64,000 nt of DNA from Tannerellaceae bacterium (GCA_051660585.1 JBOFPV010000038.1:1151-65150), one strand, 5' to 3'. Positions 1 through 62,566 are shown, counted from the stretch's first letter. Program-made: numbers and translations. The notes: generated by a model from the sequence alone, not told the origin.

Positions 1-1545
1 ATAATCAGAACGGCCTCCTCCACCGGAACAAAGCATCATTGGTAAATCTGGATATTTCGCTTTTACACGTTCAAGAATATTATAAAGTCCACGCACATGG
101 TCCACGTAAAGATTCGATTGTTTATCTTTTAAATATACTGAATAAACATTTGTAATCGGACTATTACAATCCCACTTAAAATAAGCGATTTGAGGATATT
201 TTGTCATTAAATCATCAACAATTCCAAAAACATAATCTTGAACTTTCGGATTTGCAAGATCTAACACCATTTGATTTCTAAAATAGTATTCATCTCTATT
301 AGGTAAATGAATCACCCAGTCTTTGTGCTTTTCGTATAACTCACTTTTTGGATTCACCATTTCCGGCTCAATCCACAATCCGAACTTAATACCTTTTTCT
401 GTTGCAGCTTGGGTCAATCGACCTATACCATTAGGTAATTTAGTAACTGTTTCCTCCCAATCTCCTAATCCTTGATGATCACTACTTCGTGGGTATTTAT
501 TACCAAACCAGCCATCATCAAGTAAAAACATATCAACACCTAATTTATTGGCATCATCAAAGAGGTCTATAAGTTTATCTTCATTAAAATCAAAATAAGT
601 TGCTTCCCAGTTATTTAATAATGTCAACCGACCTTTATCCCCATCTTTTACTTGATGATTCAAGGCCCATCTATGTAAGTTTTGACTAGCAGCACCTGCT
701 CCATTATTACTATATGTAAAAATAAACTCTGGCGTAACAAAAACCTCATTGCTTGGTAGCAGATATTCTGATGCATATGGATTGATTCCTGAAATAATAC
801 GAAGGTTATTCAAATTGTCAACCTCAAAAGTAAAACGATAATTGCCCGTCCAAGCCAATGTCCCTAAAAAGACCTCTCCTTGATCCTCCGACATTTTCTC
901 ATCCAAAGCAACAATGAAAAACGGAGAACAAAACATATTCGCTCTTGATCCTAATTTAGAGTCAACCTGCTTCTTCCCAAAATTCAACTCAGTCTCACTC
1001 ATATTTACCTCATGTGCCCAATCTCCAGTAAATTCAGTCAAGAAGTATTTATCTCGTTTTAAATGAAACATAGACGAAGCATAATTATAAATTGTTACAG
1101 GCTTCTTTTCTGAATGCTTTATTTCTGTATGAGCCTTTATCACATTCTCCTTTTCGAAAGCATCAAAAATCAATTTCACCTCAAAAGGGTATTTATCATC
1201 TGCAAGAAGAATAGTCGTACGTACCACTCTGTTTGGCTTCTGTTCTACCTTGTGACTTATATACTTAAGCATTAACGATGGGTTTCCATCATTATGCAAA
1301 ACTCGAATAGCCGGTTCGAAATAATCTTCCAATCCATGAGTTATATATGCCTCTCCATCAAAACCCAAATACTCGAAATCCTGAGCATTCTTTAGCTTTG
1401 GGCCTAAATAAGATTGATAAACTCGACCGTTCTGACCGACCTTATATACCAAGTCTGTTTCTGACGTTGATATATGTACTATCTGGGCTTTTAATCCAGA
1501 TGAAATAATAAATAATAGAATCAAAAGAAAACTCGCCTTCTTCAT
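1..1545 (-). CDS. Alpha-galactosidase, GH36 (3' end runs off the window)
   Basis: Not in the ORF track. My translation from ATG 1545 gives signal peptide MKKASFLLILLFIISSGLKAQ, then GH36 motifs LLNNWEATYFDF, MFLLDDGWFG, GLGDW, KFGLWIEPEMVN and YFKWDCN. Confidence 0.93.
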   Translation of the reverse strand, partial: MKKASFLLILLFIISSGLKAQIVHISTSETDLVYKVGQNGRVYQSYLGPKLKNAQDFEYLGFDGEAYITHGLEDYFEPAIRVLHNDGNPSLMLKYISHKVEQKPNRVVRTTILLADDKYPFEVKLIFDAFEKENVIKAHTEIKHSEKKPVTIYNYASSMFHLKRDKYFLTEFTGDWAHEVNMSETELNFGKKQVDSKLGSRANMFCSPFFIVALDEKMSEDQGEVFLGTLAWTGNYRFTFEVDNLNNLRIISGINPYASEYLLPSNEVFVTPEFIFTYSNNGAGAASQNLHRWALNHQVKDGDKGRLTLLNNWEATYFDFNEDKLIDLFDDANKLGVDMFLLDDGWFGNKYPRSSDHQGLGDWEETVTKLPNGIGRLTQAATEKGIKFGLWIEPEMVNPKSELYEKHKDWVIHLPNRDEYYFRNQMVLDLANPKVQDYVFGIVDDLMTKYPQIAYFKWDCNSPITNVYSVYLKDKQSNLYVDHVRGLYNILERVKAKYPDLPMMLCSGGGGRSDY

Positions 1546-1852
1546 GATATTTAATATATGGTTATTAACAAAACAAATATACACTATTTTACAAAGAAAA
1601 TAAATCAATATTATTCAATAACAAAGCTACAATCGGAATATCAAATTAAACAATTCATACAATATCAAAATCTTAAATCGCAAAACCCCGTTAAACATTA
1701 AATGGATAAGATTAGAAACAGAATAAAGCAAATAAATATTTTTTACTCAAAAAAAACAGCCACAGCTTAAATAAATATAATATTAAGTGTTATTTTTGAC
1801 AGATCATGTATACATTTACAAACGAGAATAACAATAAAAATACCACCAAAGC

Positions 1853-3421
1853 ATGAAAGACACCAGAGGAAAGCATTCACAAAAAAAGAAGTTTTTTAGA
1901 CGAAAATCCTTTTTTGTTATCCTTGGAATCATAATTGGTGCTGTTATTACGATCAGCTCTTTTTATGTTTCGCATTACTTCTCAACAAACGAATCATGTG
2001 AGATGTGCCATGTACATCCTCATGCACATGACAGTTGGAAATTATCAAGCCATGTCAACAATCGTAGTGGCATGAAAGTAAATTGTATTGACTGCCATCT
2101 TCCACCGGGAGGAACTATAGAACATTATCAAGCTAAAGTTTCTACAGGTATGAAAGACGTGTGGGGTAAACTTACAAAGGACAGTGCAGATTTTGACTGG
2201 GAAAGCAAATCTCAACTGGAATATGCTGTAAAAATGATCCCAAACAAGTCATGCAAAAATTGCCATTCAAACTTATTTCCAGAAGGCCTATCTAATGATG
2301 GTGTCACAGCCCATTTATATTATGACGAAAATGAGCAAAAGCTAGACTTACAATGTATCAGTTGTCACCTTAATGTAGGGCATTACAATCCTAATTTCAA
2401 GCATGAAAAAATGAAAGGCCTCCCCAATACAAATATTTCTACAGGTGAACTTTATACAGAAGCTACAACTCTAAAAGAGTTTCAAAACTTCAAGGAACAA
2501 ATACCTGGCACTTCAGTCGCTTTCAACATGAAAGCCATTCCCGGTGGTACTTTTCAAATGGGAAGTCCAGAAAATGAAGCTTTTCGCAATGAAGATGAAA
2601 GTCCAATCAGAAACGTCACACTGAGTCCTTTCTATATGGCAGAATTAGAAGTTACCTGGGATATGTATTGGGCTTTTTACTCAGAAACAATGTCTGAAGG
2701 ACGCATTAGTCCAGAAACTGTTTATGCGAATAATAGTAATCCGGAAGTAGATGCAATCTCAGGACCAACTCCTCCTTTTGGATTCCCTGATCAAGGTTGG
2801 GGGGCAGGCGAACGCCCAGCAATTACAATGACTCATTATGCCGCACAAACTTTCTGTCAATGGCTTTCTAAAAAAACAGGCAAGCAATATCGTCTTCCAA
2901 CTGAAGCAGAATGGGAATATGCAGCTCGCGGAGGGACTTCATCTCCATACTTTTTCGCAGGAACAGCAAGCGACTTTTCTGACAAAGGTTTTTTTCGCAA
3001 AATATTTAAAGCAAAAACTGACTCGATTGATAAATATGTTATTTACACAAAGAATAGCAACAACCGAACTCAATTGCCTGAAACTGTAGCAGCAAATCCG
3101 TTTGGGTTAAAAAACATGCTCGGCAATGTTATGGAATATTGTTCTGATAAGTACACTCCATCTGCATATGCAGAATCTCCGTCTGACGTAACAAATCCGA
3201 AGGGTCCTTCCCAAGGAGATGAATATGTTGTACGAGGAGGATTGTACAATACAGATCCAGAAAATGTAAGATGCGCTGCACGCGGGAAAACAGACCACAC
3301 TAAATGGTTAAAAACGGATCCACAACAACCTAAAAGTATATGGTGGTACTCTGACATTAAAGGTATTGGTTTTCGCGTCGTATGTGATGCCGATAACTAT
3401 AATACTCTTGCAAATAATTAA
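1853..3421 (+). CDS. NapC/NirT-type tetraheme cytochrome c fused to an FGE-sulfatase (SUMF1-like) domain
   Basis: N-terminal TM helix; four CxxCH motifs (CEMCH, CIDCH, CKNCH, CISCH); C-terminal FGE-family motifs IPGGTFQMGS, YRLPTEAEWEYAARGG, NPFGLKNMLGNVMEYC and GFRVV. Confidence 0.9.
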   Translation: MKDTRGKHSQKKKFFRRKSFFVILGIIIGAVITISSFYVSHYFSTNESCEMCHVHPHAHDSWKLSSHVNNRSGMKVNCIDCHLPPGGTIEHYQAKVSTGMKDVWGKLTKDSADFDWESKSQLEYAVKMIPNKSCKNCHSNLFPEGLSNDGVTAHLYYDENEQKLDLQCISCHLNVGHYNPNFKHEKMKGLPNTNISTGELYTEATTLKEFQNFKEQIPGTSVAFNMKAIPGGTFQMGSPENEAFRNEDESPIRNVTLSPFYMAELEVTWDMYWAFYSETMSEGRISPETVYANNSNPEVDAISGPTPPFGFPDQGWGAGERPAITMTHYAAQTFCQWLSKKTGKQYRLPTEAEWEYAARGGTSSPYFFAGTASDFSDKGFFRKIFKAKTDSIDKYVIYTKNSNNRTQLPETVAANPFGLKNMLGNVMEYCSDKYTPSAYAESPSDVTNPKGPSQGDEYVVRGGLYNTDPENVRCAARGKTDHTKWLKTDPQQPKSIWWYSDIKGIGFRVVCDADNYNTLANN

Positions 3422-3455
3422 TTCTTTTTTATAAACTTCTAAACCTAATAGTATC

Positions 3456-4838
3456 ATGGAAACTAAAAACGGTCTTAGCAGAAGAAGCTTCCTTAAAAGT
3501 GGAGCAATGGCAAGTGCCTTAGGTGCAATAGGAACAAGCACAGGTGCTGCTACTATTTTATCATCTTGTAGTAGTCAGGAAGAAAACAAGCCTGCCTATA
3601 CCCCTCTTCGTCCTCAGTCTGAGATATACATTCCTTACTTAACAGACAAAGCTATAGACGGAAAGCCACTAAAAGCAGGTATAATTGGTTGTGGAGGTCG
3701 AGGCTCGGGTGCTGCTTTTAACTTCTTAGACGCAGCTGACAATGTTACAATTACGGCGCTTGCAGATGTATTTCAAGAGCGTGTAGACGGACTTCGCAAC
3801 ACTCTAAAAGAAAAAAGAAACATTGATATTCCAGCCGAAAACTGTTTTGTTGGCTTCGATGCATATCAGAAAGTTATTGATTCGGGTGTAGATGTTGTTT
3901 TGATTTGTACTCCTCCTGTATTTAGACCTGAACAATTTAAATACGCTGTCGAAAAAAACAAACACTCATTTCTTGAGAAACCAGTAGCAGCAGACGCAGC
4001 AGGTTACAGACAAGTTGTTGCATCATCCAAACAAGCCGTTGCTAAAGGACTTTGCGTTATAACAGGTACGCAACGCCACCATCAACGCTGCTATGTTGCC
4101 TCGTACCAGAAAGTGCAAGAGGGATTGATTGGTGAGATTACCGGCGGTGTTGTATATTGGAATCAAAGTATGCTTTGGTATCGAAACCGCGAAAAGAATT
4201 GGACGGATGTAGAGTGGATGATCAAAGATTGGGTTAACTGGACTTGGTTATCGGGTGACCACATCGTTGAACAGCACGTTCACAACATTGACGTTTACAA
4301 TTGGTTCACAGGTCAAAAACCTTCAAGTGCAGTCGCTTTTGGTTCTCGTCAACGCCGCATTACCGGAAATCAATACGATAACTTCAGCACCGACTTTGTA
4401 TATCCGGGAGGAGTACATATGCACAGTATGTGTAGACAGATAGACGGTTGCGTTAATAATGTTAGCGAGTTTATTCAAGGCACACTTGGAACTTGGGATA
4501 GCAAAACATTTGAAATCAAAGATCTTCAAGGCAATGTTGTCTGGAAATACGACTTCGAACAACAAGATAAGGAGTTTAAACAAAATGACCCTTATGTATT
4601 GGAACATGTAGACTGGATTACTCATATTCGCAAAAACGAACCATTCTCAGAAGCAGAAGATACAGCAATTTCTACTCTTTGTGCGGTAATGGGACGCGTA
4701 TCAGCATACACAGGTAGCGAAGTTACTTGGGATGCAATGAGCGCAGCAGACCAAAACTTACTACCTACCGATTTAAGTTTAGCGACAAAAATGCCAGAAA
4801 GCACATATGTAATACCTGTACCAGGCTCTGCAAAATAA
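3456..4838 (+). CDS. Tat-exported Gfo/Idh/MocA family oxidoreductase, probable lipoprotein
   Basis: Twin-arginine SRRSFLK and a lipobox-like ILSSC; Rossmann GIIGCGGRG; EKP motif; EQHVHNID. Confidence 0.9.
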   Translation: METKNGLSRRSFLKSGAMASALGAIGTSTGAATILSSCSSQEENKPAYTPLRPQSEIYIPYLTDKAIDGKPLKAGIIGCGGRGSGAAFNFLDAADNVTITALADVFQERVDGLRNTLKEKRNIDIPAENCFVGFDAYQKVIDSGVDVVLICTPPVFRPEQFKYAVEKNKHSFLEKPVAADAAGYRQVVASSKQAVAKGLCVITGTQRHHQRCYVASYQKVQEGLIGEITGGVVYWNQSMLWYRNREKNWTDVEWMIKDWVNWTWLSGDHIVEQHVHNIDVYNWFTGQKPSSAVAFGSRQRRITGNQYDNFSTDFVYPGGVHMHSMCRQIDGCVNNVSEFIQGTLGTWDSKTFEIKDLQGNVVWKYDFEQQDKEFKQNDPYVLEHVDWITHIRKNEPFSEAEDTAISTLCAVMGRVSAYTGSEVTWDAMSAADQNLLPTDLSLATKMPESTYVIPVPGSAK

Positions 4839-4853
4839 ATAATCAATCATGTT

Positions 4854-4901
4854 AAAAAACGATCAGATCAATTAGTTATCGACTAATTCTGATCGTTTTT
4901 T
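4854..4901 (+). terminator. Intrinsic terminator-like hairpin between the GFO and TIM-barrel genes
   Basis: AAAAAACGATCAGA..AATTAGT / ACTAATT.CTGATCGTTTTTT inverted repeat with a T tract. Confidence 0.7.
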
Positions 4902-4953
4902 TATTAGTTTTGTGACACATGCATTGATTAACCTAAATTCAAAATACATTATC

Positions 4954-5886
4954 ATGGAAATAAACAGACGCAACTTTTTAAAAGCAACTTTGGCATCAAC
5001 AGCCTTAGCTGCTGGAACTTTTGCGCATGCGGCAGATGTGAACACAATCTTTTCACCGCAAAATAAACAAAAGAAAAGTACAAACAACAACGGAGTTCTG
5101 AAGATATCTTTTCAAGAAGGAATTGCGCCAGGAGAATCACTCAATGAGAAACTAGATTATATGGAAAATCTAGGAGTAGTTGGACTTGAGCCATGGGGCG
5201 GAGGACTGCCAGGCAGAGTAACAGAAATACAAAAAGCACTTCAAAACAGAAACATAAAAGTGAGTGCAATTTGTGCCGGATTCAAAGGCTTTCTTCTATC
5301 AGAAGATCCAGCTGTAAGAAAAGAGTGTAAAGACACCATGAAAGAGATTCTTGCTGCAGCCGGAGAGTTAGGTTCTGTAGGAGTTATTCTTGTTCCGGGA
5401 TTCAACGGACAAAAACCTGCACTCCCTCATAGCATGGATACACGGAAATTCTTGTGTGATGAACTTGCCGAGCTTGGAGAGTATGCTGTACAAAACAACA
5501 CCACAGTAATTCTTGAGCCACTCAACAGGCAAGAAGCATTTTATTTACGTCAAGTAGGAGATGCGGCATCTATTTGTAGAGATATCAATAGCAAAGGAGT
5601 TACATGCATGGGCGACTTCTGGCATATGACATTTGAAGAACCTTGCGATATGGGAGCTTTTATCTCTGGAGGTGATAAGCTTTCACACGTACATGTGGCA
5701 AGCAGAAAGCGTAGAAGTATGCCTGGAGAAGATGGCGAAGCTGACAATTACATTAACGGATTTAAAGGTTTAAAACTAATCGGTTATGACAATTATGTAA
5801 GCTTTGAATGCGGAAGTCAAGGAGATAAAAAGACTACCGTACCAGCAGCAGTAGCTTTGCTTAAAGAACAATGGAATAAAGCATAA
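4954..5886 (+). CDS. Tat-exported sugar phosphate isomerase/epimerase (xylose-isomerase-like TIM barrel, AP_endonuc_2)
   Basis: ATG 4954 gives MEINRRNFLK (Tat motif); metal-site motifs ILEPLNRQE, GDFWHM, SHVHVA and VSFEC. Confidence 0.88.
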   Translation: MEINRRNFLKATLASTALAAGTFAHAADVNTIFSPQNKQKKSTNNNGVLKISFQEGIAPGESLNEKLDYMENLGVVGLEPWGGGLPGRVTEIQKALQNRNIKVSAICAGFKGFLLSEDPAVRKECKDTMKEILAAAGELGSVGVILVPGFNGQKPALPHSMDTRKFLCDELAELGEYAVQNNTTVILEPLNRQEAFYLRQVGDAASICRDINSKGVTCMGDFWHMTFEEPCDMGAFISGGDKLSHVHVASRKRRSMPGEDGEADNYINGFKGLKLIGYDNYVSFECGSQGDKKTTVPAAVALLKEQWNKA

Positions 5887-6611: not shown

Positions 6612-7184
6612 ATGTCTCAATCGCTTAGTATAGCAATTATCCATACTAATACACTTGTAACATCGGGGCTTTCTTGGATATTCAACACCTATTTCAAACC
6701 CGTACAAGTAAAGATTTATCTCTCTGCCGAAGAATACACGCGATGTTCGGGTGGACAAGGAGATTATATCTTTACAGATACCGAAACGTATGCACTTCAC
6801 CCCGATTTATTCATCCCCCGCAAACAAAAAACCTGGATATTTATAGATAAGCAGAATCTAACGACGCAAACAAGTGGACCGTTCTTTTTGCATATGCAAG
6901 CTCCCATCGAATCTATTATTGAGCAACTGGAAACAATAAATTCACAAAACGTATCCAATAGTAACGATAATGGCAAAGAACTTTCTTCGCGCGAAATTGA
7001 AGTTCTGCAATTCATTGTAAGAGGCGCTATCAATAAAGAAATTGCAGATAAACTCTCCATAAGTCTTAACACAGTCTTGACACACAGAAAAAACATTACA
7101 AGCAAACTAGGCATCAAAACCGTTTCAGGACTCACCTTTTATGCAATGATGAATGGTTATATCTCTTCAGACGCCATAGAATAA
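6612..7184 (+). CDS. LuxR/GerE-family transcriptional regulator
   Basis: C-terminal HTH LSSREIEVLQFIVRGAINKEIADKLSISLNTVLTHRKNITSKLG; degenerate receiver-like N-terminus. Confidence 0.92.
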   Translation: MSQSLSIAIIHTNTLVTSGLSWIFNTYFKPVQVKIYLSAEEYTRCSGGQGDYIFTDTETYALHPDLFIPRKQKTWIFIDKQNLTTQTSGPFFLHMQAPIESIIEQLETINSQNVSNSNDNGKELSSREIEVLQFIVRGAINKEIADKLSISLNTVLTHRKNITSKLGIKTVSGLTFYAMMNGYISSDAIE

Positions 7185-7224: not shown

Positions 7225-7839
7225 ATGATTAAAGCAGAAAACATTACGATATCATACAATGACCTCACCCCTATACAAGATTTCTCATTTGAAATACCTG
7301 CAAATACCAAATGCGTACTAACAGGGCCTTCGGGCAGAGGCAAATCTTCTCTTCTCAACAGCATTGCCGGATTTGTAAATCCCACAAAAGGCAAACTGTA
7401 TGTTCATAACATAGAAATAAATGAACAAAACATTGCCCAAGTACGTAAAACAATTAGCTATCTACCTCAGGAGCTAAACATTGATTTGCCAACCTGCAAG
7501 CAATTACTTTACTATCCTTTTACATTTAAAGTAAACAAAGCCATTAAGCCTAGTGAGAAAGATGTAGCACAAATCCTTGAGCAATTACTTCTACCTTCAG
7601 ATATCTTAGAAAAACAACTTTCTGAAATATCCGGCGGACAAAAACAAAGATTGGCTCTAGCCTCAATCTTATTACTCAAGCGTCCTATCCTTTTACTCGA
7701 TGAGCCCACGTCTGCACTTGATGATGCATCAACAACAGCTGTTATTGACACCATCCTTGCACTAAACCAAGTCACTGTTATTTCTGCATCGCACGATTCT
7801 CGATGGATTGAAAAAATGAACCTCTCTATTTCTCTTTAA
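7225..7839 (+). CDS. ABC transporter ATPase (FetA/YbbL-like)
   Basis: Walker A GPSGRGKS, signature ISGGQKQR, Walker B LLLDEPTSALD, H-loop SHD; adjacent to a FetB-like permease. Confidence 0.88.
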   Translation: MIKAENITISYNDLTPIQDFSFEIPANTKCVLTGPSGRGKSSLLNSIAGFVNPTKGKLYVHNIEINEQNIAQVRKTISYLPQELNIDLPTCKQLLYYPFTFKVNKAIKPSEKDVAQILEQLLLPSDILEKQLSEISGGQKQRLALASILLLKRPILLLDEPTSALDDASTTAVIDTILALNQVTVISASHDSRWIEKMNLSISL

Positions 7840-7867
7840 AAAACTTCTAAAAAACAAACAACTCACA

Positions 7868-8656
7868 ATGGGAGCACAAGATATTAGCTGGTTACATCTG
7901 GCAATGGGATACATCCTATTAATTATTCCAATCACGATCTCTTCTTATTACAAAATGGGATTAGCAAAAGACACCATCGTCTCTGTTTTGCGAATGACCA
8001 TTCAACTCCTTTTAGTTGGTGTATATCTTGAATTTATATTCCAGTTAGACAATCCGCTTATCAACCTTGCTTGGGTTGCAATCATGCTAAGCGTTACCAC
8101 GTATACCATTTTGCAACGCTCCAACCTAAAGCAGCTTCGTTTTTTCACACCGGTATGGAGTGCGATCTTCATCAGTATTTTAGTAGTCGATTTCTTTCTA
8201 CTCTATCAAGTCCTTGATCTGAAATCGCTAACAGATGCACGCTATCTGATCCCGATTACCGGAATGCTTATCGGAAACACACTAGCCGACATCGTAACGT
8301 CGATGAATGTATTTTACACCAACATCGACAAACAAAAAAACACCTACCGATATGCCTTAGCAAACGGAGCAACACAAGGCGAAGCTCTAAATATATTTAT
8401 GCGTGATGCAATGAAAGTATCCATGAACCGAGGACTTGCCAGTACGGCCGTAATGGGACTTGTTTCTTTACCGGGCATGATGACAGGACAGATTCTTGGT
8501 GGTAGTTCGCCTTCCATCGCGATTAAATACCAAATTCTTATCGTGATTACTATTTTCGTATCCTCCTCAGCAAGCGTATTCCTTACACTTTTGTTTACCA
8601 AACGAAAAGCCATCGACCCGTTTGGCAATCTTCGTAAAGAGATTTTCAAAAAATAA
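7868..8656 (+). CDS. fetB: ABC permease, UPF0014/FetB (YbbM) family
   Basis: RMTIQLLLVG, YLIPITGMLIGN and GLVSLPGMMTGQILGG..P..AIKYQI signatures. Confidence 0.85.
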   Translation: MGAQDISWLHLAMGYILLIIPITISSYYKMGLAKDTIVSVLRMTIQLLLVGVYLEFIFQLDNPLINLAWVAIMLSVTTYTILQRSNLKQLRFFTPVWSAIFISILVVDFFLLYQVLDLKSLTDARYLIPITGMLIGNTLADIVTSMNVFYTNIDKQKNTYRYALANGATQGEALNIFMRDAMKVSMNRGLASTAVMGLVSLPGMMTGQILGGSSPSIAIKYQILIVITIFVSSSASVFLTLLFTKRKAIDPFGNLRKEIFKK

Positions 8657-8703
8657 AATTCAACACAGCTTTATAAATAAGCAAAGAATCTCATTTCCAT
8701 TAA

Positions 8704-8723
8704 AATCACTACATGTAGTGATT
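8704..8723. promoter_or_regulatory. Perfect 20-bp palindrome, putative operator of the TonB receptor gene
   Basis: AATCACTACA|TGTAGTGATT, ending 53 bp upstream of ATG 8777; it has no loop and no U tract. Confidence 0.7.
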
Positions 8724-8776
8724 GCGGCGCTTTGAAGAAACTTGTTACTTTGCTAAAAAATTAACAAGATTGTTTT

Positions 8777-11047
8777 ATGAAGCGCCTTTTTATTTTTTCA
8801 ATATCGCTACTTGGAGGTTTGATGACGCAACAAAGCTATGCGTCTGATAAACTTACAACCGATACCCTGCGAACCTATAATCTAAATGAAGTCGTTATCA
8901 CCTCTTCTACCAAAGAAACAAACAAACTTCAATCACTACCATCAGCTATATCAGTGATTTCTCCGCTTGCAATACAAAGCAGACAAATCGAAGCGATCAA
9001 AAACCTAAGCGGTTTTGTACCCAATCTTTTTATTCCTGATTATGGTGCAAAATTAACTTCTGCGGTATACATTCGTGGTATTGGCGCGCGCAGTAGCGGA
9101 CAATCAATAGGACTTTACATCGACAATGTCCCATATCAAAACAAAAGCACTTTCGATTTCAACCTAAACGATATACAGCGTATCGAAGTGTTGCGTGGAC
9201 CACAAGGCACACTTTACGGACGTAATGCAATGGGTGGTATTATCAATGTATATACCCTTTCTCCGTTTCAATACCAAGGAACTAAACTTTCTGTATCGGG
9301 AGGAGGCTACGGAGAATTTGCGGCAAAAGCATCTCACTACAATAAGTTAAGCAAAAACGTAGGCATCTCCGTAAGCGGATACTACAATCGCAACGACGGT
9401 TACTTCCGTAATGTATATACCGGAAAAAGAGCCGACTGGGAAGAAGCCGCAGGCGGAAGAATAAAGCTCGATTGGATGATCAAACCGTCTTTGAAAGCTT
9501 CTTTTCAAAGCAGCTTCGACTATACCAATCAAGGAGCATTTGCTTATGGTCTGCTTGATAAAGGAACACAAGAGGTAGAAAGTGTAAACTACAACGATCC
9601 GGGATCGTATTACCGTCGCGTTGTCAACAACAGTATTAACCTAGAATACAGAACCGATAATTTTATCTTGAGTTCTACAACCGGGCAACAATACTTCATG
9701 GACCGTATGCAAATGGACCAAGACTTTACAGACAAGTCGATCTTCACCCTTACACAAAAGCAACGACAAAACTCGGTAAGTGAAGAACTAGCTATCCGTT
9801 CCAACAACAAGAATAACTACAAATGGTCGTTCGGAACGTTTGGATTCTATAACTACTTACATACCGACGGACCTGTTACTTTCAAACAAGACGGCGTGCA
9901 AGGAATTCTTCAAAAGGTATTTGACGACCTTAAAGAAGAAAACCCAAAAGCTCCATATATAAAGATTACTGACAATGAAATCTATATCCCGGGTACATTT
10001 AAGACTCCATCGTATGGGGTCGCATTGTTTCACCAATCTACATTCGAAGATCTATTTACCGAAGGTTTATCGTTCACGGCCGGACTCCGTTTCGACTATG
10101 AAAAAGCAGAGCTTCGTTACGATACCAACATTGAGATGAATACGCTTATCGATATGGGACGTCCCGGAGTGCCACCAATGCCAATGGCTCTTCAAGACAC
10201 CTTGCAAGGAAAAACATCGATGGACTTCACTCAACTGTTGCCAAAGTTTGCATTGAAATATGAATTTAGTCCGAAGCAATTTATATATGCATCGGTAACC
10301 AAAGGATACAAAGTAGGTGGATATAACGTACAAATGTTTGCCGACTTAATTCAAGAAAGTCTAAAAAACAAATTCAATCCCGGAGGTACAAGCACCTCTA
10401 TTCAGGATGCCGTTTCGTATGCTCCGGAAAAAAGTTGGAACTATGAATTAGGCGGACGCTGCGATATTATCCCGGATCATCTCAATGCAGATCTTACATT
10501 CTTCTACATGGACATCGATGATATCCAGTTGACAAAGTTTGTAAACAGCGGTAACGGTCGCATTATTGCAAATGCAGGAGCCGCATCAAGTTATGGAGCA
10601 GAAGTTTCATTACGTAGTCGTATTACCGATGCACTTTCGGCAGATTTGAATTATGGCTATACACATGCCACGTTTAAGAACTACGATGACGGCAAAAACA
10701 ACTACGAAGGCAAATTCATACCCTACACACCAAGACACACATTCTCGGTAGGAATCAATTATGCGCGCACACTACGTTGTCCATTTATTGACCAAGTTAG
10801 TTTTGCTACGCAATACACGGCTGCCGGAAAAATTTACTGGACAGAGCGAAACGACTTTTACCAAAAATTCTATGGTACGCTCAATGCTAAAATAGGTTTC
10901 AGAAAAGGAGCCGTAAAACTTGACGTGTGGGCCAAGAACATGCTCAACACCGATTATCAAGCATTTTACTTCGAATCATTCGGTAATTCGTTTGTACAAA
11001 AAGGCAAACCATTCAGAATGGGAGCCGATCTAAGCGTCAGCTTTTAA
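8777..11047 (+). CDS. TonB-dependent outer-membrane receptor (non-SusC type)
   Basis: Signal peptide, LNEVVIT, plug motifs YIRGIG and RIEVLRGPQGTLYGRNAMGGIINV, C-terminal Phe. Confidence 0.93.
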   Translation: MKRLFIFSISLLGGLMTQQSYASDKLTTDTLRTYNLNEVVITSSTKETNKLQSLPSAISVISPLAIQSRQIEAIKNLSGFVPNLFIPDYGAKLTSAVYIRGIGARSSGQSIGLYIDNVPYQNKSTFDFNLNDIQRIEVLRGPQGTLYGRNAMGGIINVYTLSPFQYQGTKLSVSGGGYGEFAAKASHYNKLSKNVGISVSGYYNRNDGYFRNVYTGKRADWEEAAGGRIKLDWMIKPSLKASFQSSFDYTNQGAFAYGLLDKGTQEVESVNYNDPGSYYRRVVNNSINLEYRTDNFILSSTTGQQYFMDRMQMDQDFTDKSIFTLTQKQRQNSVSEELAIRSNNKNNYKWSFGTFGFYNYLHTDGPVTFKQDGVQGILQKVFDDLKEENPKAPYIKITDNEIYIPGTFKTPSYGVALFHQSTFEDLFTEGLSFTAGLRFDYEKAELRYDTNIEMNTLIDMGRPGVPPMPMALQDTLQGKTSMDFTQLLPKFALKYEFSPKQFIYASVTKGYKVGGYNVQMFADLIQESLKNKFNPGGTSTSIQDAVSYAPEKSWNYELGGRCDIIPDHLNADLTFFYMDIDDIQLTKFVNSGNGRIIANAGAASSYGAEVSLRSRITDALSADLNYGYTHATFKNYDDGKNNYEGKFIPYTPRHTFSVGINYARTLRCPFIDQVSFATQYTAAGKIYWTERNDFYQKFYGTLNAKIGFRKGAVKLDVWAKNMLNTDYQAFYFESFGNSFVQKGKPFRMGADLSVSF

Positions 11048-12033: not shown

Positions 12034-13368
12034 ATGAAAGCAACAGAAGTATTGGATCAATTAAAAAGACGTTTTCCTAACGAACCTGAATACCATCAGG
12101 CTGTACAAGAAGTATTAGAATCTATCGAGGGTATTTATAACGAACACCCGGAGTTTGACAAAGTAAACTTGATCGATAGACTTTGTATACCGGATCGTAT
12201 TTTCACGTTTCGTGTAACATGGATGGACGACAAAGGAAATGTACACGCCAATATGGGCTACCGTGTTCAACACAACAACGCGATTGGACCATACAAAGGA
12301 GGTATCCGTTTCCACTCATCTGTAAACCCATCTATTCTTAAATTCCTAGCATTTGAGCAAACTTTCAAAAACTCACTTACTACACTACCTATGGGTGGAG
12401 GTAAAGGTGGTTCCGATTTCAACCCAAAAGGCAAATCAAACACAGAAATCATGCGTTTCTGCCAAGCATTTGTATTGGAGTTGTGGAGACACATTGGTCC
12501 TGAAACCGACGTACCGGCAGGTGACATTGGTGTAGGTGGCCGCGAAGTAAGCTACATGTATGGAATGTATAAGAAACTAGCTCGCGAAAACACAGGAACA
12601 TTCACCGGTAAAAGCTTGGAAACAGGCGGTTCTTTGATCCGTCCCGAAGCAACAGGATACGGCAACGTATATTTCCTACTTGAAATGTTGAAAACAAAAA
12701 ATATCGACATCAAGGGTAAAGTTGTTGCTATCTCAGGCTCTGGAAACGTAGCACAATACACAGCTGAAAAACTGATTGAACTAGGTGCAAAAGTTGTTAC
12801 CATGTCCGACTCGAATGGTTACATCTACGATCCGGAAGGCATTGATCACGAAAAGTTAAACTACATCATGGAATTGAAAAACCTTTACAGAGGTCGTATC
12901 CGTGAGTATGCAGACGAATACGGCTGCAAATACGTAGAAGGCGGTCGTCCATGGAGTGAAAAGTGTGATATTGCATTGCCAAGTGCAACACAAAATGAAC
13001 TAAATGGAGACGACGCACGTGCTTTGATCGCAAACGGATGTATCGCTGTTTCGGAAGGAGCTAACATGCCTTCAACTCCGGAAGCAATTGAAGTATTCTT
13101 AGAAAATCACATCTTGTATGCTCCGGGGAAAGCTGCAAATGCAGGAGGAGTAGCTACATCTGGTTTGGAAATGACACAAAATGCAATCAAACTAGGTTGG
13201 ACAAGAGAAGAAGTTGATGAAAGACTAAAATCAATCATGAAGTCTATCCACGAGCAATGTATGAAGTATGGTACAGATGCTAATGGCTTTGTAAACTACG
13301 TGAAAGGTGCGAACATCGCAGGATTCATGAAGGTAGCCAAAGCGATGATGGATCAAGGCGTAATCTAA
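12034..13368 (+). CDS. gdhA: Glutamate dehydrogenase (Bacteroides GdhA type, NAD(P)H)
   Basis: GPYKGGIRFH, GGGKGG, VPAGDIG, GSGNVA and EGANMP; N-terminus LKRRFPNEPEYHQAV as in Bacteroides GdhA. Confidence 0.93.
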   Translation: MKATEVLDQLKRRFPNEPEYHQAVQEVLESIEGIYNEHPEFDKVNLIDRLCIPDRIFTFRVTWMDDKGNVHANMGYRVQHNNAIGPYKGGIRFHSSVNPSILKFLAFEQTFKNSLTTLPMGGGKGGSDFNPKGKSNTEIMRFCQAFVLELWRHIGPETDVPAGDIGVGGREVSYMYGMYKKLARENTGTFTGKSLETGGSLIRPEATGYGNVYFLLEMLKTKNIDIKGKVVAISGSGNVAQYTAEKLIELGAKVVTMSDSNGYIYDPEGIDHEKLNYIMELKNLYRGRIREYADEYGCKYVEGGRPWSEKCDIALPSATQNELNGDDARALIANGCIAVSEGANMPSTPEAIEVFLENHILYAPGKAANAGGVATSGLEMTQNAIKLGWTREEVDERLKSIMKSIHEQCMKYGTDANGFVNYVKGANIAGFMKVAKAMMDQGVI

Positions 13369-18861: not shown

Positions 18862-19015
18862 AGACAAATGATAAAATTTTATTCTCAAAAGTATATAAAA
18901 AAGTTTGTTTATTCGTTTTAATCAATACATTTGCCCCTGTTCGTTTGTTTTATATAAAAAACAAATGGTATTTATAAATATGATAAATCACAATAACTAA
19001 GTAAAACAACTAGTG

Positions 19016-20350
19016 ATGAAAACCGAACAAATTATAGCATCGCTGGAAGCCAAACATCCCGGCGAACACGAGTATCTTCAGGCAGTAAAAGAAGTTTTAC
19101 TTTCAATAGAAGATGTATATAACCAACATCCGGAGTTTGAAAAAGCTCGAATCATAGAACGCTTAGTTGAGCCCGATAGAATTCTAACCTTTAGAGTTCC
19201 TTGGGTAGACGACAGGGGCGATATTCAGGTAAACCTTGGTTACCGCGTACAATTTAACAATGCAATTGGCCCATACAAAGGAGGTTTACGCTTTCACGCA
19301 TCCGTAAACCTTTCCATTCTTAAGTTTTTAGGATTTGAACAAACCTTCAAAAATGCACTTACTACCCTACCGATGGGCGGAGCAAAAGGAGGTTCAGATT
19401 TTAGCGTTCGTGGAAAATCGAACGGTGAAATCATGCGCTTCTGTCAAGCATTCATGCTCGAGTTGTGGCGCAACATAGGTCCCGACACAGATGTGCCGGC
19501 CGGAGATATCGGTGTGGGTGCCCGTGAAATTGGTTATCTATACGGAATGTACAAAAAGCTTGCACGCGAAAATACCGGAACATTTACCGGAAAAGGTCTC
19601 GACTATGGCGGTTCTCGCATCCGTCCCGAAGCGACCGGTTTTGGCGGATTGTACTTTGTAGACGAGATGCTCAAAGCACAAGGAATGAGTTTGCACGGAA
19701 AAACTGTTGCCATTTCCGGATTTGGAAATGTGGCTTGGGGCGCAGCAATCAAGGCTACCGAACTAGGAGCAAAAGTGGTTACCATCTCAGGACCGGACGG
19801 ATATGTATACGATCCGAATGGTATCAAAGGGGAGAAAATCGATTATATGCTAGAATTGCGTAATTCGGGCGAAGATATTGTAGCTCCGTATGCAGAGAAA
19901 TACAATGTTGAATTCTTCGAAGGCAAAAAGCCTTGGGAACAAAAAGTAGACATCGCACTACCTTGTGCAACACAAAACGAACTAGACGAAGCCGATGCTC
20001 GATTACTTTATAAAAACGGAGTCATGTGCGTGGGCGAAATTTCAAACATGGGCTGTACGGCCGAAGCTGCCGACTATATGATAGAGCACAAAATGCTTTA
20101 TGCTCCGGGCAAAGCAGTAAATGCTGGTGGTGTAGCAACTTCCGGACTAGAAATGACGCAGAATGCTATGCACCTGCAATGGGAAGCCGAAGAAGTAGAC
20201 AGCCGTTTGAAGCAAATCATGATAAACATCCATGAGCAATGTGTAAAATATGGTACCGATGAGCATGGATACGTCAACTATGTAAAAGGTGCAAACATTG
20301 CCGGGTTTATGAAAGTAGCCAAAGCAATGATTGATCAAGGCGTTATCTAA
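19016..20350 (+). CDS. gdhB: Glutamate dehydrogenase (Bacteroides GdhB type, NAD-dependent)
   Basis: SLEAKHPGEHEYLQAVKEV N-terminus and GFGNVAWG, as in B. fragilis GdhB; -7 element TACATTTG at 18926-18933. Confidence 0.9.
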   Translation: MKTEQIIASLEAKHPGEHEYLQAVKEVLLSIEDVYNQHPEFEKARIIERLVEPDRILTFRVPWVDDRGDIQVNLGYRVQFNNAIGPYKGGLRFHASVNLSILKFLGFEQTFKNALTTLPMGGAKGGSDFSVRGKSNGEIMRFCQAFMLELWRNIGPDTDVPAGDIGVGAREIGYLYGMYKKLARENTGTFTGKGLDYGGSRIRPEATGFGGLYFVDEMLKAQGMSLHGKTVAISGFGNVAWGAAIKATELGAKVVTISGPDGYVYDPNGIKGEKIDYMLELRNSGEDIVAPYAEKYNVEFFEGKKPWEQKVDIALPCATQNELDEADARLLYKNGVMCVGEISNMGCTAEAADYMIEHKMLYAPGKAVNAGGVATSGLEMTQNAMHLQWEAEEVDSRLKQIMINIHEQCVKYGTDEHGYVNYVKGANIAGFMKVAKAMIDQGVI

Positions 20351-23919: not shown

Positions 23920-25236
23920 ATGACTTCTCGTAGAAACTTTATTAAACAAGCCTCGGCGCTTGGTCTAGGACTTACAGCGAGTCCGTTCTTAATTAGAGCA
24001 AACAACACGTCTGTATCTTTGAATGACAAGATTCAGATAGGCCTGATCGGTTGTAAAGGAATGGGATTCTCGAATTTACAAGCCTTCCTTAAAAACCCGG
24101 AAGTAGAATGTATAGCTTTGGCTGATGTAGACGAATCGGTACTAAACCAGCGGGCTGCTGATACAGAGAAAATACAAGGCAGAAAAGTAAAACATCTTTA
24201 CAAAGATTGGCGCAAACTAATCGACAATAAAGATGTAGACGTTGTTATTGTGGGAACTCCGGACCATTGGCACTGCCTGCAAATGGTAGCGGCCTGTCAA
24301 GCCGGTAAAGACGTGTATTGCGAAAAGCCGTTGGGCAATAGCATCGAAGAGTGCAACATCATGGTAAACGCTGCACAAAAGTACAATCGAGTAGTGCAAG
24401 TGGGACAATGGCAACGCAGTGATCCGCACTGGCAAGATGCTGTCAATTTTATTCGCAGTGGTAAACTGGGAAAAATCAGAACTGTTCGCGTTTTCTCCTA
24501 TCAAGGTTGGTGCCCTTCTATTCCGGTACAAGCCGATACGACTCCACCCAAAGGAGTCGACTATGATATGTGGTTAGGTCCGGCTCAAGAAAGACCTTTC
24601 AATCCGAATCGCTTTCACTTTACGTTTCGTTGGTTTTGGGATTATGCCGGAGGATTAATGACTGATTGGGGAGTACACCTACTCGACTATGCATTGTATG
24701 GTATGGATGTAACCACTCCTAATTCAATCATGGCTTCGGGAGGCAAGTTTGGCTATCCCGACGATGCTTGTGAAACACCCGATTTACTTCAAACCATTTA
24801 TGAATTCGACGGATTCACCGTTCTTTGGGATCATGCAATCGGAATCAACGACGGAGCCTATGGACGTAATCATGGTTTAGGTTTTGTTGGAGAGAATGGT
24901 ACTTTAGTGATAGACCGTGGCGGATGGGAAGTAATTCCTGAGAATGTAAATGGCAAAGCTCGTATGGAGGCTGTTGCCTTGCAAAAAGCATATGGTGAAG
25001 GCGGACTGAATCTGCACGTGAAAAACCATTTGCAATGCATCAAAGATCGCAATCCAAACTGCAATGCAAACATTGAAATTGGTGCACACATTGCGAAGTT
25101 TTCGCAGCTTGGAAACATTGCTTATCGCACAGGGAATAAATTGATTTGGGATGGCACCCAATTTACGAATGATAGCGATGCAAACAAGTACTTAGTTCCT
25201 AACTACCGTGCTCCATGGAAGTTGCCTTCTATTTAA
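23920..25236 (+). CDS. Tat-exported Gfo/Idh/MocA family oxidoreductase
   Basis: SRRNFIK, GLIGCKGMG, TPDHWH, CEKP and DWGVHLLD. Confidence 0.92.
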   Translation: MTSRRNFIKQASALGLGLTASPFLIRANNTSVSLNDKIQIGLIGCKGMGFSNLQAFLKNPEVECIALADVDESVLNQRAADTEKIQGRKVKHLYKDWRKLIDNKDVDVVIVGTPDHWHCLQMVAACQAGKDVYCEKPLGNSIEECNIMVNAAQKYNRVVQVGQWQRSDPHWQDAVNFIRSGKLGKIRTVRVFSYQGWCPSIPVQADTTPPKGVDYDMWLGPAQERPFNPNRFHFTFRWFWDYAGGLMTDWGVHLLDYALYGMDVTTPNSIMASGGKFGYPDDACETPDLLQTIYEFDGFTVLWDHAIGINDGAYGRNHGLGFVGENGTLVIDRGGWEVIPENVNGKARMEAVALQKAYGEGGLNLHVKNHLQCIKDRNPNCNANIEIGAHIAKFSQLGNIAYRTGNKLIWDGTQFTNDSDANKYLVPNYRAPWKLPSI

Positions 25237-61218: not shown

Positions 61219-62391
61219 ATGAAGAAAAACATTATCCTTTTATGTCTTGCTTTTGTTGCCTGCTTCACAGCTAAAGCAGCAGAAGAGACAACAGGCATTC
61301 AATTCGAACATGGAACATGGAGCCAAGCCGTAGAGAAAGCAAAAGCAGAAAACAAACTAATCTTTGTAGACTTTTACACGCAATGGTGCGGACCGTGTAT
61401 GAACATGGCAGAAGAAGTATTCGTACTTCCTACTGTTGGTGAATTCTACAACACAAACTTTGTAAACTTAAAAATCGATGCTGAAAACGGCGAAGGTGTA
61501 GACCTAGCAAAGAAATATGGCGTAAGAAGTTACCCTACTTATGTATTTATCGACCCTGCTACACAAGAAGCAGTACACATGAGCAGCAGCCGCCAAACAG
61601 GCCCGGGCTTTATTAAAACCGGAGCAAACGCAAAAAATCCGTCTACGCGTTCTTTTTATTTGATTGAGCAATTTGAGAAAGGAAACAGAGACAAACAATT
61701 CCTTTCAGACTACATCGAATACATGAAGTCGACCTACAAAACAGACAATGTAAGCAAAGCTTTCGATATTTTGATTGCACAAGGAGCCACTCTTGAGCAG
61801 CCGGAAATCTGGACTTTATTTGTTGAAACAATCAACGGTCCAAAGAATCCATATATCAAGCAAGTATCAGACAAATACACTAAGTTTATAGAGCTATACG
61901 GCAAAAAAGCTGTAGACGAAAAACTAGCAAAAGAAACAACTTACCTTTCAATCGAAGAACTTGATCAGTTTTGCGACTATGAAGGCAAGCGATTCAATCG
62001 TGAAATGATTGAGTTGAACGGTTACACCAAAGCTAAAGAATACGACAAAGCGATTGTTAAGATTGATGCTTTAATCGCAGACACTAGCATAAACAGACAA
62101 GCACTTATAGATCGTCTTAAGTTTATTGTACGTGGTGGCGTATCTGAAAACAGCCCTGCAAACTGGTCTAAGAAATGTCTTGAGTATTTGCAGTTCATTG
62201 CCTACAACAACGAAGATCGTCGCGATTCGTATGTTCACTACGAATACGGAGCTGCACTTGAAAAATACATCAAGATGATGAACAACAAGACTGAGCTTCC
62301 TGCAACCATTCTCGACGCTCCAAAAGTAGGAAAGAACAACTACAACATGCGTTCGGACAAACTTAAGATGAAACCTGTCAAAAAGAAATAA
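61219..62391 (+). CDS. Secreted thioredoxin-domain protein with a helical C-terminus
   Basis: Signal peptide; FVDFYTQWCGPC; cis-Pro motif SYPT. Confidence 0.88.
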   Translation: MKKNIILLCLAFVACFTAKAAEETTGIQFEHGTWSQAVEKAKAENKLIFVDFYTQWCGPCMNMAEEVFVLPTVGEFYNTNFVNLKIDAENGEGVDLAKKYGVRSYPTYVFIDPATQEAVHMSSSRQTGPGFIKTGANAKNPSTRSFYLIEQFEKGNRDKQFLSDYIEYMKSTYKTDNVSKAFDILIAQGATLEQPEIWTLFVETINGPKNPYIKQVSDKYTKFIELYGKKAVDEKLAKETTYLSIEELDQFCDYEGKRFNREMIELNGYTKAKEYDKAIVKIDALIADTSINRQALIDRLKFIVRGGVSENSPANWSKKCLEYLQFIAYNNEDRRDSYVHYEYGAALEKYIKMMNNKTELPATILDAPKVGKNNYNMRSDKLKMKPVKKK

Positions 62392-62566
62392 TCTAACAAT
62401 AATTCATATTTACACAAACACTTAACATCCTACCTTGCAGAAACACACAGACAAGTTCTATGTAGATAATCTTTACAAATAGTAAAGCATTATCACATAA
62501 GAACTTGTTCATATGCAAAATGAACCTATCTTTGCAAAAAAACAATAAGAAACAGACAATAAACTC

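Follow-up and report, generated by a model that had tools for sequence, protein, structure and literature searches.

A conserved operon for a tetraheme cytochrome–FGE-fold fusion and two Tat-exported sugar enzymes in a Tannerellaceae bacterium: a candidate quinone-linked periplasmic sugar dehydrogenase

This report concerns a stretch of 64,000 nucleotides (nt) from a Tannerellaceae bacterium (GCA_051660585.1 JBOFPV010000038.1:1151-65150), referred to below as the window, with all coordinates counted from the first letter of the stretch. The feature studied is the operon at 1853-5886, which encodes a tetraheme cytochrome joined to an FGE-fold domain (the fusion), a Gfo/Idh/MocA-family protein (GFO), and a xylose-isomerase-like TIM barrel (TIM). 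The three co-oriented open reading frames (ORFs) lie where an earlier note on this DNA, made from the sequence alone, had placed them (1853-3421, 3456-4838, and 4912/4954-5886, all on the + strand), and their products carry the export features named in that note: a transmembrane helix and four CxxCH motifs in the first, a Tat motif and a lipobox in the second, and a Tat motif in the third. The genes and the features within them are given below; aa, amino acids; FMN, flavin mononucleotide.

1853..3421, + strand: fusion gene, 522 aa; ORF for a membrane anchor, a NapC/NirT-type tetraheme cytochrome c domain, a linker, and an FGE-fold domain
1910..1978, + strand: transmembrane helix predicted from sequence, aa 20-42, preceded by a Lys/Arg-rich N-terminus
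1997..2368, + strand: four CxxCH heme c attachment motifs, aa 49-53, 78-82, 134-138, and 168-172
2531..3298, + strand: FGE-sulfatase-fold domain (Pfam), aa 227-482, without the catalytic Cys pair of FGE
2750..2770, + strand: DAISGPT, aa 300-306, ApbE-like motif; by motif likeness T306 is a candidate FMN acceptor
3305..3346, + strand: WLKTDPQQPKSIWW loop, aa 485-498, subfamily signature, predicted to sit on the nucleotide-binding loop of GFO
3456..4838, + strand: GFO gene, 460 aa; Tat-exported lipoprotein of the Gfo/Idh/MocA family
4954..5886, + strand: TIM gene, 310 aa from ATG 4954 (324 aa from GTG 4912); Tat-exported xylose-isomerase-like TIM barrel

The N-terminal part of the fusion is matched by Cytochrom_NNT (PF03264; aa 20-181, 91 bits, Pfam cut-off 24.1) and the C-terminal part by FGE-sulfatase (PF03781; aa 227-482, 139.5 bits, Pfam cut-off 23.3). 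In the AlphaFold2 (AF2) model of the fusion the membrane helix spans aa 18-41, and the protein beyond it should sit in the periplasm, because of the positive-inside rule and because c-type hemes must be periplasmic. Four CxxCH motifs are found in 80 of the 81 fusion ORFs (loci L001-L089). A protein search gave 7969 relatives among 8000 scored candidates, standing for thousands of protein clusters; both domains are present in all of the 120 best listed, for which the NCBI name is only 'SUMF1/EgtB/PvdO family nonheme iron enzyme'. NCBIfam equivalogs of the NapC/NirT group (NrfH, TorC, NapC) all stay far below their cut-offs for the fusion, which is the only NapC/NirT-family match found in this 99%-complete genome.

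GFO is matched by GFO_IDH_MocA (PF01408; 43.7 bits, cut-off 24) and by the C3 domain (PF22725; 29.1 bits, cut-off 27), and reaches 20.7 bits with Pfam TAT_signal, just below the cut-off of 22.7. Its Tat motif is SRRSFLK (aa 8-14, nt 3477-3497), its lipobox LSSC (aa 35-38, nt 3558-3569), and its Gly-rich loop GCGGRGSGA (nt 3687-3713); an EKP motif follows at aa 174-176 (nt 3975-3983). Residue conservation, here and below, was counted in alignments of 85 sequences. GCGGRG (aa 78-83) and EKP are invariant in the GFO family, as are R9 and F12 of the Tat motif, with R10 conserved in at least 90%; the lipobox Cys is present in 69 of 69 GFOs adjoining a fusion. The nearest solved relatives in the PDB are weak matches: inositol dehydrogenases (2.5e-9), DgpA (2e-7), and a glucuronide 3-dehydrogenase. 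A GH109-type enzyme was considered for GFO and dropped, no such Pfam or PDB match being found.

TIM is matched by AP_endonuc_2 (PF01261; 99.5 bits) and by TAT_signal (24.0 bits, cut-off 22.7), with the Tat motif NRRNFL at aa 4-9 as numbered from ATG 4954, which is the more likely start than GTG 4912. PDB 3kws, an uncharacterized 'putative sugar isomerase', is matched at 3e-141; the closest characterized relative, far more distant than 3kws, is 6wn6 (YcjR), a 3-keto-D-glucoside 4-epimerase (E 4e-23). No NCBIfam equivalog reaches its cut-off for TIM.

Relatives of the fusion were sought in species-representative genomes (462), and the neighborhood counts refer to the best 80 loci, from Tannerellaceae, Dysgonomonadaceae, Rikenellaceae, Bacteroidaceae, and Prevotellaceae records. 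Downstream of the fusion, 72 of these 80 loci have a GFO ortholog (55-99% identity) in the same orientation and 68 have a TIM barrel; of the 12 that lack a TIM barrel, seven are cut by contig ends. The earlier note had named a lack of co-occurrence between fusion homologs and GFO/TIM genes as an outcome that would speak against its proposal; at 72/80 and 68/80 for the two genes, co-occurrence is what is found. The arrangement of the triad is not due to chance, since RRxF is conserved in the GFO family, the lipobox Cys is complete (69/69), and the gene order is kept in 68-72 of the 80 loci. It might still be held that the cytochrome–FGE protein merely neighbors sugar genes and has no functional link with them, for which one may point to the five of 80 fusion loci without GFO and TIM nearby and to four other heme-plus-FGE proteins in the genome that have no assigned role. 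We give this hardly any credence, against an adjacency kept across families at 55-68% identity, in fused and unfused states alike, and against the co-conserved interface residues and the complex prediction, far above its controls, that are described below.

A sample of 401 genomes from the phylum places the fusion in a wider family. Only three of them encode the full-length fusion, and more than 30 encode a secreted protein of 310-430 aa that matches fusion residues ~200-514 at 38-45% identity and carries a Sec or lipoprotein signal. Nineteen of these stand-alone loci were fetched, plus one distant fusion locus (L089); in 17 of the 19 a GFO ortholog (35-41% identity, Tat signal retained) lies directly downstream. 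The conserved core is the pair of FGE-like protein and GFO, and it is older than the cytochrome fusion. In L089 the order is TIM, DUF1080 (3-keto-disaccharide hydrolase), fusion, GFO, GH78, and TonB receptor. Neither the fusion nor the pairing of FGE-like protein and GFO was found described in the literature searched.

The FGE-like domain is related to solved FGEs (E 1.7e-22 against PDB sequences), and its best NCBIfam match is PvdO (95.6 bits). Aligned with solved FGEs, the domain can be followed as far as RGG (aa 461-463). The segment after RGG(S) is what we take to be the site of the two Cu-binding catalytic cysteines of FGE, a few residues apart; the fusion has only C474 and C511 after RGG, 37 residues apart, and no conserved Cys column follows RGG among the 85 sequences. 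A sulfatase was met once among the 55 neighbor proteins scanned (L029), the conserved neighbor being GFO. The fusion as a true FGE serving sulfatases was rejected on the absence of the Cys pair and on GFO, not a sulfatase, being the neighbor. The earlier note had read the first gene as a cytochrome fused to an FGE, and the fusion is confirmed; it had given the FGE part no role, yet this part has a conserved partner in GFO. The subfamily is marked by two signature loops, WxxxDPQxPKSxWW and V-D-A-I/V-S-G-P-T-P-P-F/Y; in the first of these W485, D489, P490, Q491, P493, S495, W497, and W498 of the fusion are invariant.

A complex of the FGE domain (aa 200-522) and GFO (aa 40-460) was modeled from own alignments of 85 rows each, with nicotinamide adenine dinucleotide (NAD) and FMN riding along. 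The score has a median of 0.76 (runs 0.69, 0.80, and 0.76), the best of three controls reaching 0.31; the mark attained by 116 of 157 solved complexes and by 2 of 215 mismatched pairs calibrates this score only roughly here, given the own alignments and the riding ligands. The runs share at least 94% of their contacts, with 54-65 contacts in the interface and a predicted local distance difference test value (pLDDT) of at least 93 for the partners. On the fusion side the interface is formed by residues 306-311, beginning with T306, and 487-493 (DPQ loop); on the GFO side by residues 81-89 (nucleotide-binding Gly-rich loop), Q206, 235-244 (W235-W241), and 378-380 (P379-Y380). The contacts of lowest error join 487-493 of the fusion with 81-88 and 378-380 of GFO, and the interface residues are the family-invariant ones of both proteins. 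In the AF2 model of the fusion alone the FGE core has a pLDDT above 90, and loops 281-303 and 492-496 fall below 50, as expected, because segments that become ordered on binding would look so. We know of no solved complex between an FGE fold and a GFO. The multimer check suggested by the earlier note, run on the FGE domain with GFO, thus supports binding, and the model places the FGE domain at the nucleotide loop of GFO.

ApbE is the flavin transferase of the periplasm. Ten of the 19 stand-alone loci have a gene for it at a distance of ~7 kb or less, and six of the 80 fusions have one as a neighbor; in three of five genomes checked the cluster copy is the sole ApbE of the genome. The recognition motif of ApbE is D-x-x-[S/T]-G-A-[S/T], and a change of its Ala to Val is reported to leave about 50% flavinylation (PMC12052999). 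In the fusion, DAISGPT fits this motif at all positions but one, with D300 conserved in 82/85, P305 in 83/85, and position 306 in 85/85 (Thr in 76, Ser in 9); it lies on a low-pLDDT coil when the fusion is modeled alone (AF2). A conserved [ST]GA[ST] motif is found in none of the other proteins of the clusters with ApbE, and GFO and the TIM barrel, considered as ApbE substrates themselves, were dropped for want of one. The main texts of the flavinylation surveys PMC8238504 and PMC11334425 name neither FGE nor Gfo, and the fuller lists of PMC8238504 could include the family. By motif likeness T306 of the FGE-like domain may carry a covalent FMN attached by ApbE, a tentative assignment that we hold to be somewhat less probable than its contrary.

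The same fold and the same interface could be read as those of a maturation enzyme, in which the FGE-like domain modifies GFO or TIM (a modification or a cofactor) and the hemes serve as electron sink. The fold family includes the protein-modifying oxidase FGE and PvdO, and the site predicted on GFO would also fit an encounter of enzyme and substrate. We consider this very improbable: the Cys pair of FGE is absent, an interface of 54-65 contacts, to which both partners contribute invariant residues at the NAD loop, is of the kind typically seen in stable complexes, and the presence of ApbE points to the adaptor as the protein that is modified.

As to the cytochrome, the earlier note had seen no nitrate or nitrite reductase partner for it in the window, and NrfA (PF02335) is not found even in the whole 99%-complete genome; a periplasmic reductase partner is likewise missing from the 80 neighborhoods scanned, the genome-wide search having left out Nap, Tor, and Dms. 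The genome encodes CcsBA, MenA, and a b558-type fumarate reductase cytochrome b. Of the 80 fusion loci, 24 have a gene for CcsBA, a cytochrome c synthase of system II, after the TIM gene; the only CcsBA of the window genome is on another contig, beside a different heme-plus-FGE protein (C116).

Electrons might also flow in the reverse direction, the hemes oxidizing menaquinol and GFO reducing a periplasmic keto compound (a keto-sugar, a dehydroascorbate-like or a quinone-like compound), as acceptor or for detoxification. NrfH, NapC, TorC, and CymA are quinol dehydrogenases, the fusion matches NCBIfam models of this group weakly, and no other periplasmic reductase partner was found for the cytochrome. 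Menaquinol at about -74 mV cannot reduce NAD(P)+ at about -320 mV, nor ordinary ketones, and the context of glycosidases, DUF1080, and TIM points to sugar catabolism. On balance we find reverse flow improbable, although AL/BT oxidoreductases take dehydroascorbate and erythrose as hydride acceptors, as stated in 10.1101/2024.03.25.586180.

The interpretation that we prefer, and to which we give about an even chance, is that the three genes form one membrane-tethered periplasmic sugar (glycoside) dehydrogenase which feeds the menaquinone pool. What follows on its cofactor, its substrate, the direction in which electrons move, and its flavinylation is inferred. GFO would be exported folded through Tat with tightly bound NAD(P) and would oxidize one of the secondary hydroxyls of a sugar, the likeliest being that at C3 of a galactoside, a glucoside, or a free hexose. 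The FGE-fold domain would be a docking and electron-transfer adaptor on the nucleotide-binding loop and active-site rim of GFO, where FMN on Thr306, a tentative part of the scheme, might take the hydride from locked NAD(P)H and release single electrons; the electrons would run along the four c-type hemes of the NapC/NirT domain, reach menaquinone, and end at fumarate reductase. The TIM barrel would act on the keto-sugar, by 4-epimerization as in YcjR or by beta-elimination. A converter between two-electron and one-electron transfer is needed, because a hydride carrier cannot feed one-electron hemes directly, and a covalent FMN on T306 would be the most economical one because of the association with ApbE and the position of the motif at the predicted interface.

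That the NAD(P) of GFO is non-exchangeable is suggested by Tat export and by precedents in PMC8121099 and 10.1101/2024.03.25.586180. There the bound NAD(P)H of related Tat-exported GFOs needs re-oxidation by a route that is left open; cytochromes are named as a possible route in one of the two. PMC8121099 proposes a sugar as acceptor, and regards the short electron chain of Bacteroides as probably precluding cytochrome-c-dependent dehydrogenases. The idea of the earlier note that the cytochrome re-oxidizes GFO toward menaquinone has come through the computational tests named there, in amended form, a role for the FGE-like domain and a flavin having been added. A broader version, in which the FGE fold is a new class of ApbE substrate, a flavinylated adaptor in the nucleotide cleft of GFO turns hydride into single electrons, and the fused tetraheme NapC/NirT module makes it a menaquinone reductase in gut Bacteroidales, seems rather doubtful to us; if it is true, the unfused adaptor in aerobic Bacteroidota would feed other acceptors, and the operon would represent an architecture of respiratory dehydrogenase not recognized before and provide the re-oxidation route that is missing for exported GFOs.

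Several points weigh against a dehydrogenase of this kind. NapC/NirT proteins normally accept electrons from quinol and not the reverse; the quinone-reducing direction is known from the Nitrosomonas cM552 cytochrome and from the reversible CymA. We know of no flavin-binding FGE fold. The Ala of known ApbE substrates is replaced by Pro in the candidate motif, the stand-alone, ApbE-linked proteins often have Arg for its Gly (13/85), and the single ApbE of the window genome is on another contig (C59). The complex score is the model's own confidence and not a measurement. Five of the 80 fusions (L008, L012, L017, L027, and L028) stand among housekeeping genes without GFO or TIM. Two of the stand-alone loci have an FGE-like lipoprotein and no GFO: in L091:8198-13256 it is followed by a YceI-like protein, ApbE, and a PSCyt1/PSCyt2/PSD1 cytochrome c, and in L092:8059-13463 by a YceI-like protein, an M20 peptidase, and a PSCyt1/PSCyt2/PSD1 cytochrome c; judged by this gene content, redox partners other than GFO may also be served by the FGE-like adaptor. 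To these are to be added B. thetaiotaomicron, in which a control search gave no FGE-domain match, and the GFO/TIM systems BT2156-2159/AL1-4, which work redox-neutrally and without a cytochrome (10.1101/2024.03.25.586180).

RNA evidence neither supports nor refutes co-expression. It consists of Logan contigs from animal-gut RNA libraries that represent relatives of 90-99% identity, a contig not being a transcript. Coverage by these contigs extends over GFO, TIM, and the RIC-like and LuxR-type genes (the last two described below) but takes in only the 3' end of the fusion, a gap that is not evidence of silence. A contig of 3166 nt from run X1, whose status as RNA is a guess, spans 2684-5825 and thus both gene junctions. 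Contigs of X3 and X4, from two studies, start at 3457-3462, stop at 4867, resume at 4932-4939, and run to 5758; these borders at the ends of GFO and the start of TIM are a weak hint at separate or processed transcripts. Scans for sigma-70 promoters (22, against 28.1 expected from shuffles; Bacteroidota use other promoter signals) and for terminators (7, against 7.3) are uninformative on the limits of the operon.

The genes on either side of the operon are as follows; GH, glycoside hydrolase family; HTH, helix-turn-helix.

1..1608, - strand: secreted GH36 alpha-galactosidase, cut by the window start; Pfam Melibiase 264 bits, Glyco_hydro_36N 169 bits
5895..6608, + strand: RIC/ScdA-like gene, 237 aa, beginning 8 nt past the TIM stop
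6612..7184, + strand: LuxR/GerE-type HTH gene, 190 aa, beginning 3 nt past the RIC-like stop; Pfam GerE 59.1 bits

The GH36 gene is divergent from the operon, as the earlier note had it, and runs off the window; it takes this position only here and in L002. A GH2 beta-galactosidase lies directly upstream in seven Parabacteroides-type loci, and GH92, GH109, GH78, and GH95 stand beside the operon in other loci. A lack of a DUF1080 hydratase had been recorded in the earlier note, which is right for the operon; three DUF1080 matches occur elsewhere in the genome, and one in the L089 cluster.

Galactosidases as recurring neighbors, together with a 4-epimerase (6wn6) as the closest characterized relative of TIM, also suit a redox-neutral sugar conversion (oxidation, epimerization or elimination, reduction) like that of YcjQRS or of BT2156-2159/AL1-4, for example of galactosides to glucosides or in glycoside cleavage, in which the cytochrome–FGE protein only resets GFO molecules left stuck with NAD(P)H by the escape of the keto intermediate and flow to menaquinone is a side path. 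A pathway of this kind operates in B. thetaiotaomicron, where the control search mentioned above gave no FGE-domain match. We judge such a repair function unlikely, if less so than the other alternatives. A four-heme membrane protein, often with CcsBA (24/80) and ApbE, is a heavy investment for repair; the pair of FGE-like protein and GFO is nearly obligate, at 72/80 in fused and 17/19 in stand-alone loci; and the operon in the window lacks a second GFO or DUF1080 that would close the cycle.

The co-oriented run extends past TIM without real gaps into the RIC-like and LuxR-type genes. The RIC-like protein reaches 51.5 bits with NCBIfam TIGR03652, far under the cut-off of 204.7, and has no Pfam match and no PDB sequence match. 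Its gene follows TIM in 22 of 80 loci, all of them Tannerellaceae/Parabacteroides-type and never with CcsBA in that position. The LuxR-type gene is conserved after it in Tannerellaceae/Parabacteroides loci, and its product has no recognizable receiver domain. Judged by their sequences, the two may be a redox-, nitric oxide-, or iron-sensing regulator of the operon.

Further observations were made in the window and in related loci. The LuxR gene is followed at 7225-11047 by an ABC pair resembling FetA/FetB (ABC_tran and UPF0014) and then a TonB-dependent receptor; the ABC pair is in that place only in the window and in L002, and a similar receptor comes after LuxR in L050, L061, L071, and L076. 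A second Gfo/Idh/MocA protein (23920-25236; 438 aa, GFO_IDH_MocA_C2) stands alone among housekeeping genes; proteins of the GFO_IDH_MocA_C2 type adjoin the fusion in L019, L020, and L068. The glutamate-dehydrogenase family is represented by two paralogs on one strand (12034-13368 and 19013-20350), with 5.6 kb between them. At 61219-64000 a thioredoxin-like protein precedes a DsbD/CcdA-type membrane protein whose gene runs past the window end; system II cytochrome c maturation depends on a thiol-reductant pathway of this kind. In L018 (3333-7349) ThuA (trehalose utilization) and a different Tat-exported GFO lie directly upstream of the fusion, which echoes the 3-keto-disaccharide dehydrogenase ThuAB. 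A copy (P0130) with 90% identity to the stand-alone FGE-like protein of L101, a Pedobacter-type locus, occurs in Sphingobacteriaceae bacterium GW460-11-11-14-LB5, a strain for which barcoded transposon fitness libraries exist (PMC8121099).

The genome also encodes four large secreted paralogs (1099-1326 aa), each with two CxxCH motifs and a C-terminal FGE-sulfatase domain by Pfam, at G000:C116:17487-21467 (= L112:3488-7468, - strand), C61:17168-20632, C73:1424-4723, and C118:18260-21589. The C116 copy, on which alone the full Pfam scan was run, has NPCBM, HZS_alpha (a hydrazine-synthase-like heme domain), and FGE-sulfatase, and lies directly upstream of the only CcsBA of the genome. Heme c and the FGE fold therefore recur in this genome in a second, unrelated architecture.

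For the re-oxidation of exported GFO enzymes the operon is a concrete and widely distributed candidate. Should the three genes indeed form a dehydrogenase that feeds menaquinone, periplasmic sugars would be respiratory electron donors for gut Bacteroidales, with energy from fumarate respiration gained before the sugar is imported. The FGE fold would gain a function as redox adaptor, and the list of ApbE substrates would grow.

Compared with known systems, the fusion shares an N-terminal helix and four CxxCH motifs with the NapC/NirT quinol dehydrogenases (NrfH, NapC, TorC, CymA), and it differs in being fused to an FGE-fold domain and in the direction proposed for it, quinone reduction. FGE and its fold relatives (PvdO, PorK/GldK, and the C-domain of EgtB) belong to the same fold family; in contrast to FGE, the subfamily of the window has its own DPQxPKSxWW and D-x-x-S-G-P-T loops and a GFO as genomic partner. 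YcjQRS likewise pairs a GFO-family 3-dehydrogenase with a xylose-isomerase-like TIM barrel; unlike the system of the window it is cytoplasmic, uses exchangeable NAD, and is without Tat signals or a cytochrome. LacABC consists of a flavin adenine dinucleotide enzyme (GMC-type), a small Tat subunit, and a soluble or monoheme cytochrome. The dehydrogenase of the window differs from it in a predicted locked NAD(P), an FGE-fold adaptor, a membrane NapC/NirT tetraheme module, the proposed use of menaquinone, and an anaerobic host; periplasmic oxidation of glycosides at C3 with electrons going to a c-type cytochrome would be common to it and to LacABC and ThuAB (cited in PMC8121099).

Closest in setting are BT2156-BT2159 and AL1-AL4, with which the operon shares a metal TIM barrel and a Tat-exported GFO, there with a locked NAD and making 3-keto-glycosides (PMC8121099; 10.1101/2024.03.25.586180), as well as the bacterial order and the glycosidase context, L089 having DUF1080 in addition. 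The known pathway has no cytochrome or FGE-like protein, and neither a second GFO nor DUF1080 is encoded in the operon of the window. By its sequence the system of the window is outside the BT_2159 family, because GFO scores 15.9 bits with the family model NF058563, whose cut-off is 650, and because DUF1080 is missing from the operon. With the extracytosolic proteins flavinylated by ApbE (NqrC, RnfG, NosR, PplA; PMC8238504, PMC11334425, PMC12052999) the adaptor has in common its extracytoplasmic location, an ApbE encoded in the cluster in some loci, and a candidate motif ending in Thr/Ser on an exposed loop near other redox cofactors, whereas the substrates known so far are built on FMN_bind or one of a few other folds and have Ala in place of the Pro found here. 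Against this background, the operon is real and conserved, and its products would be a variant of the quinone-linked periplasmic sugar dehydrogenase, apparently one that has not been described before.

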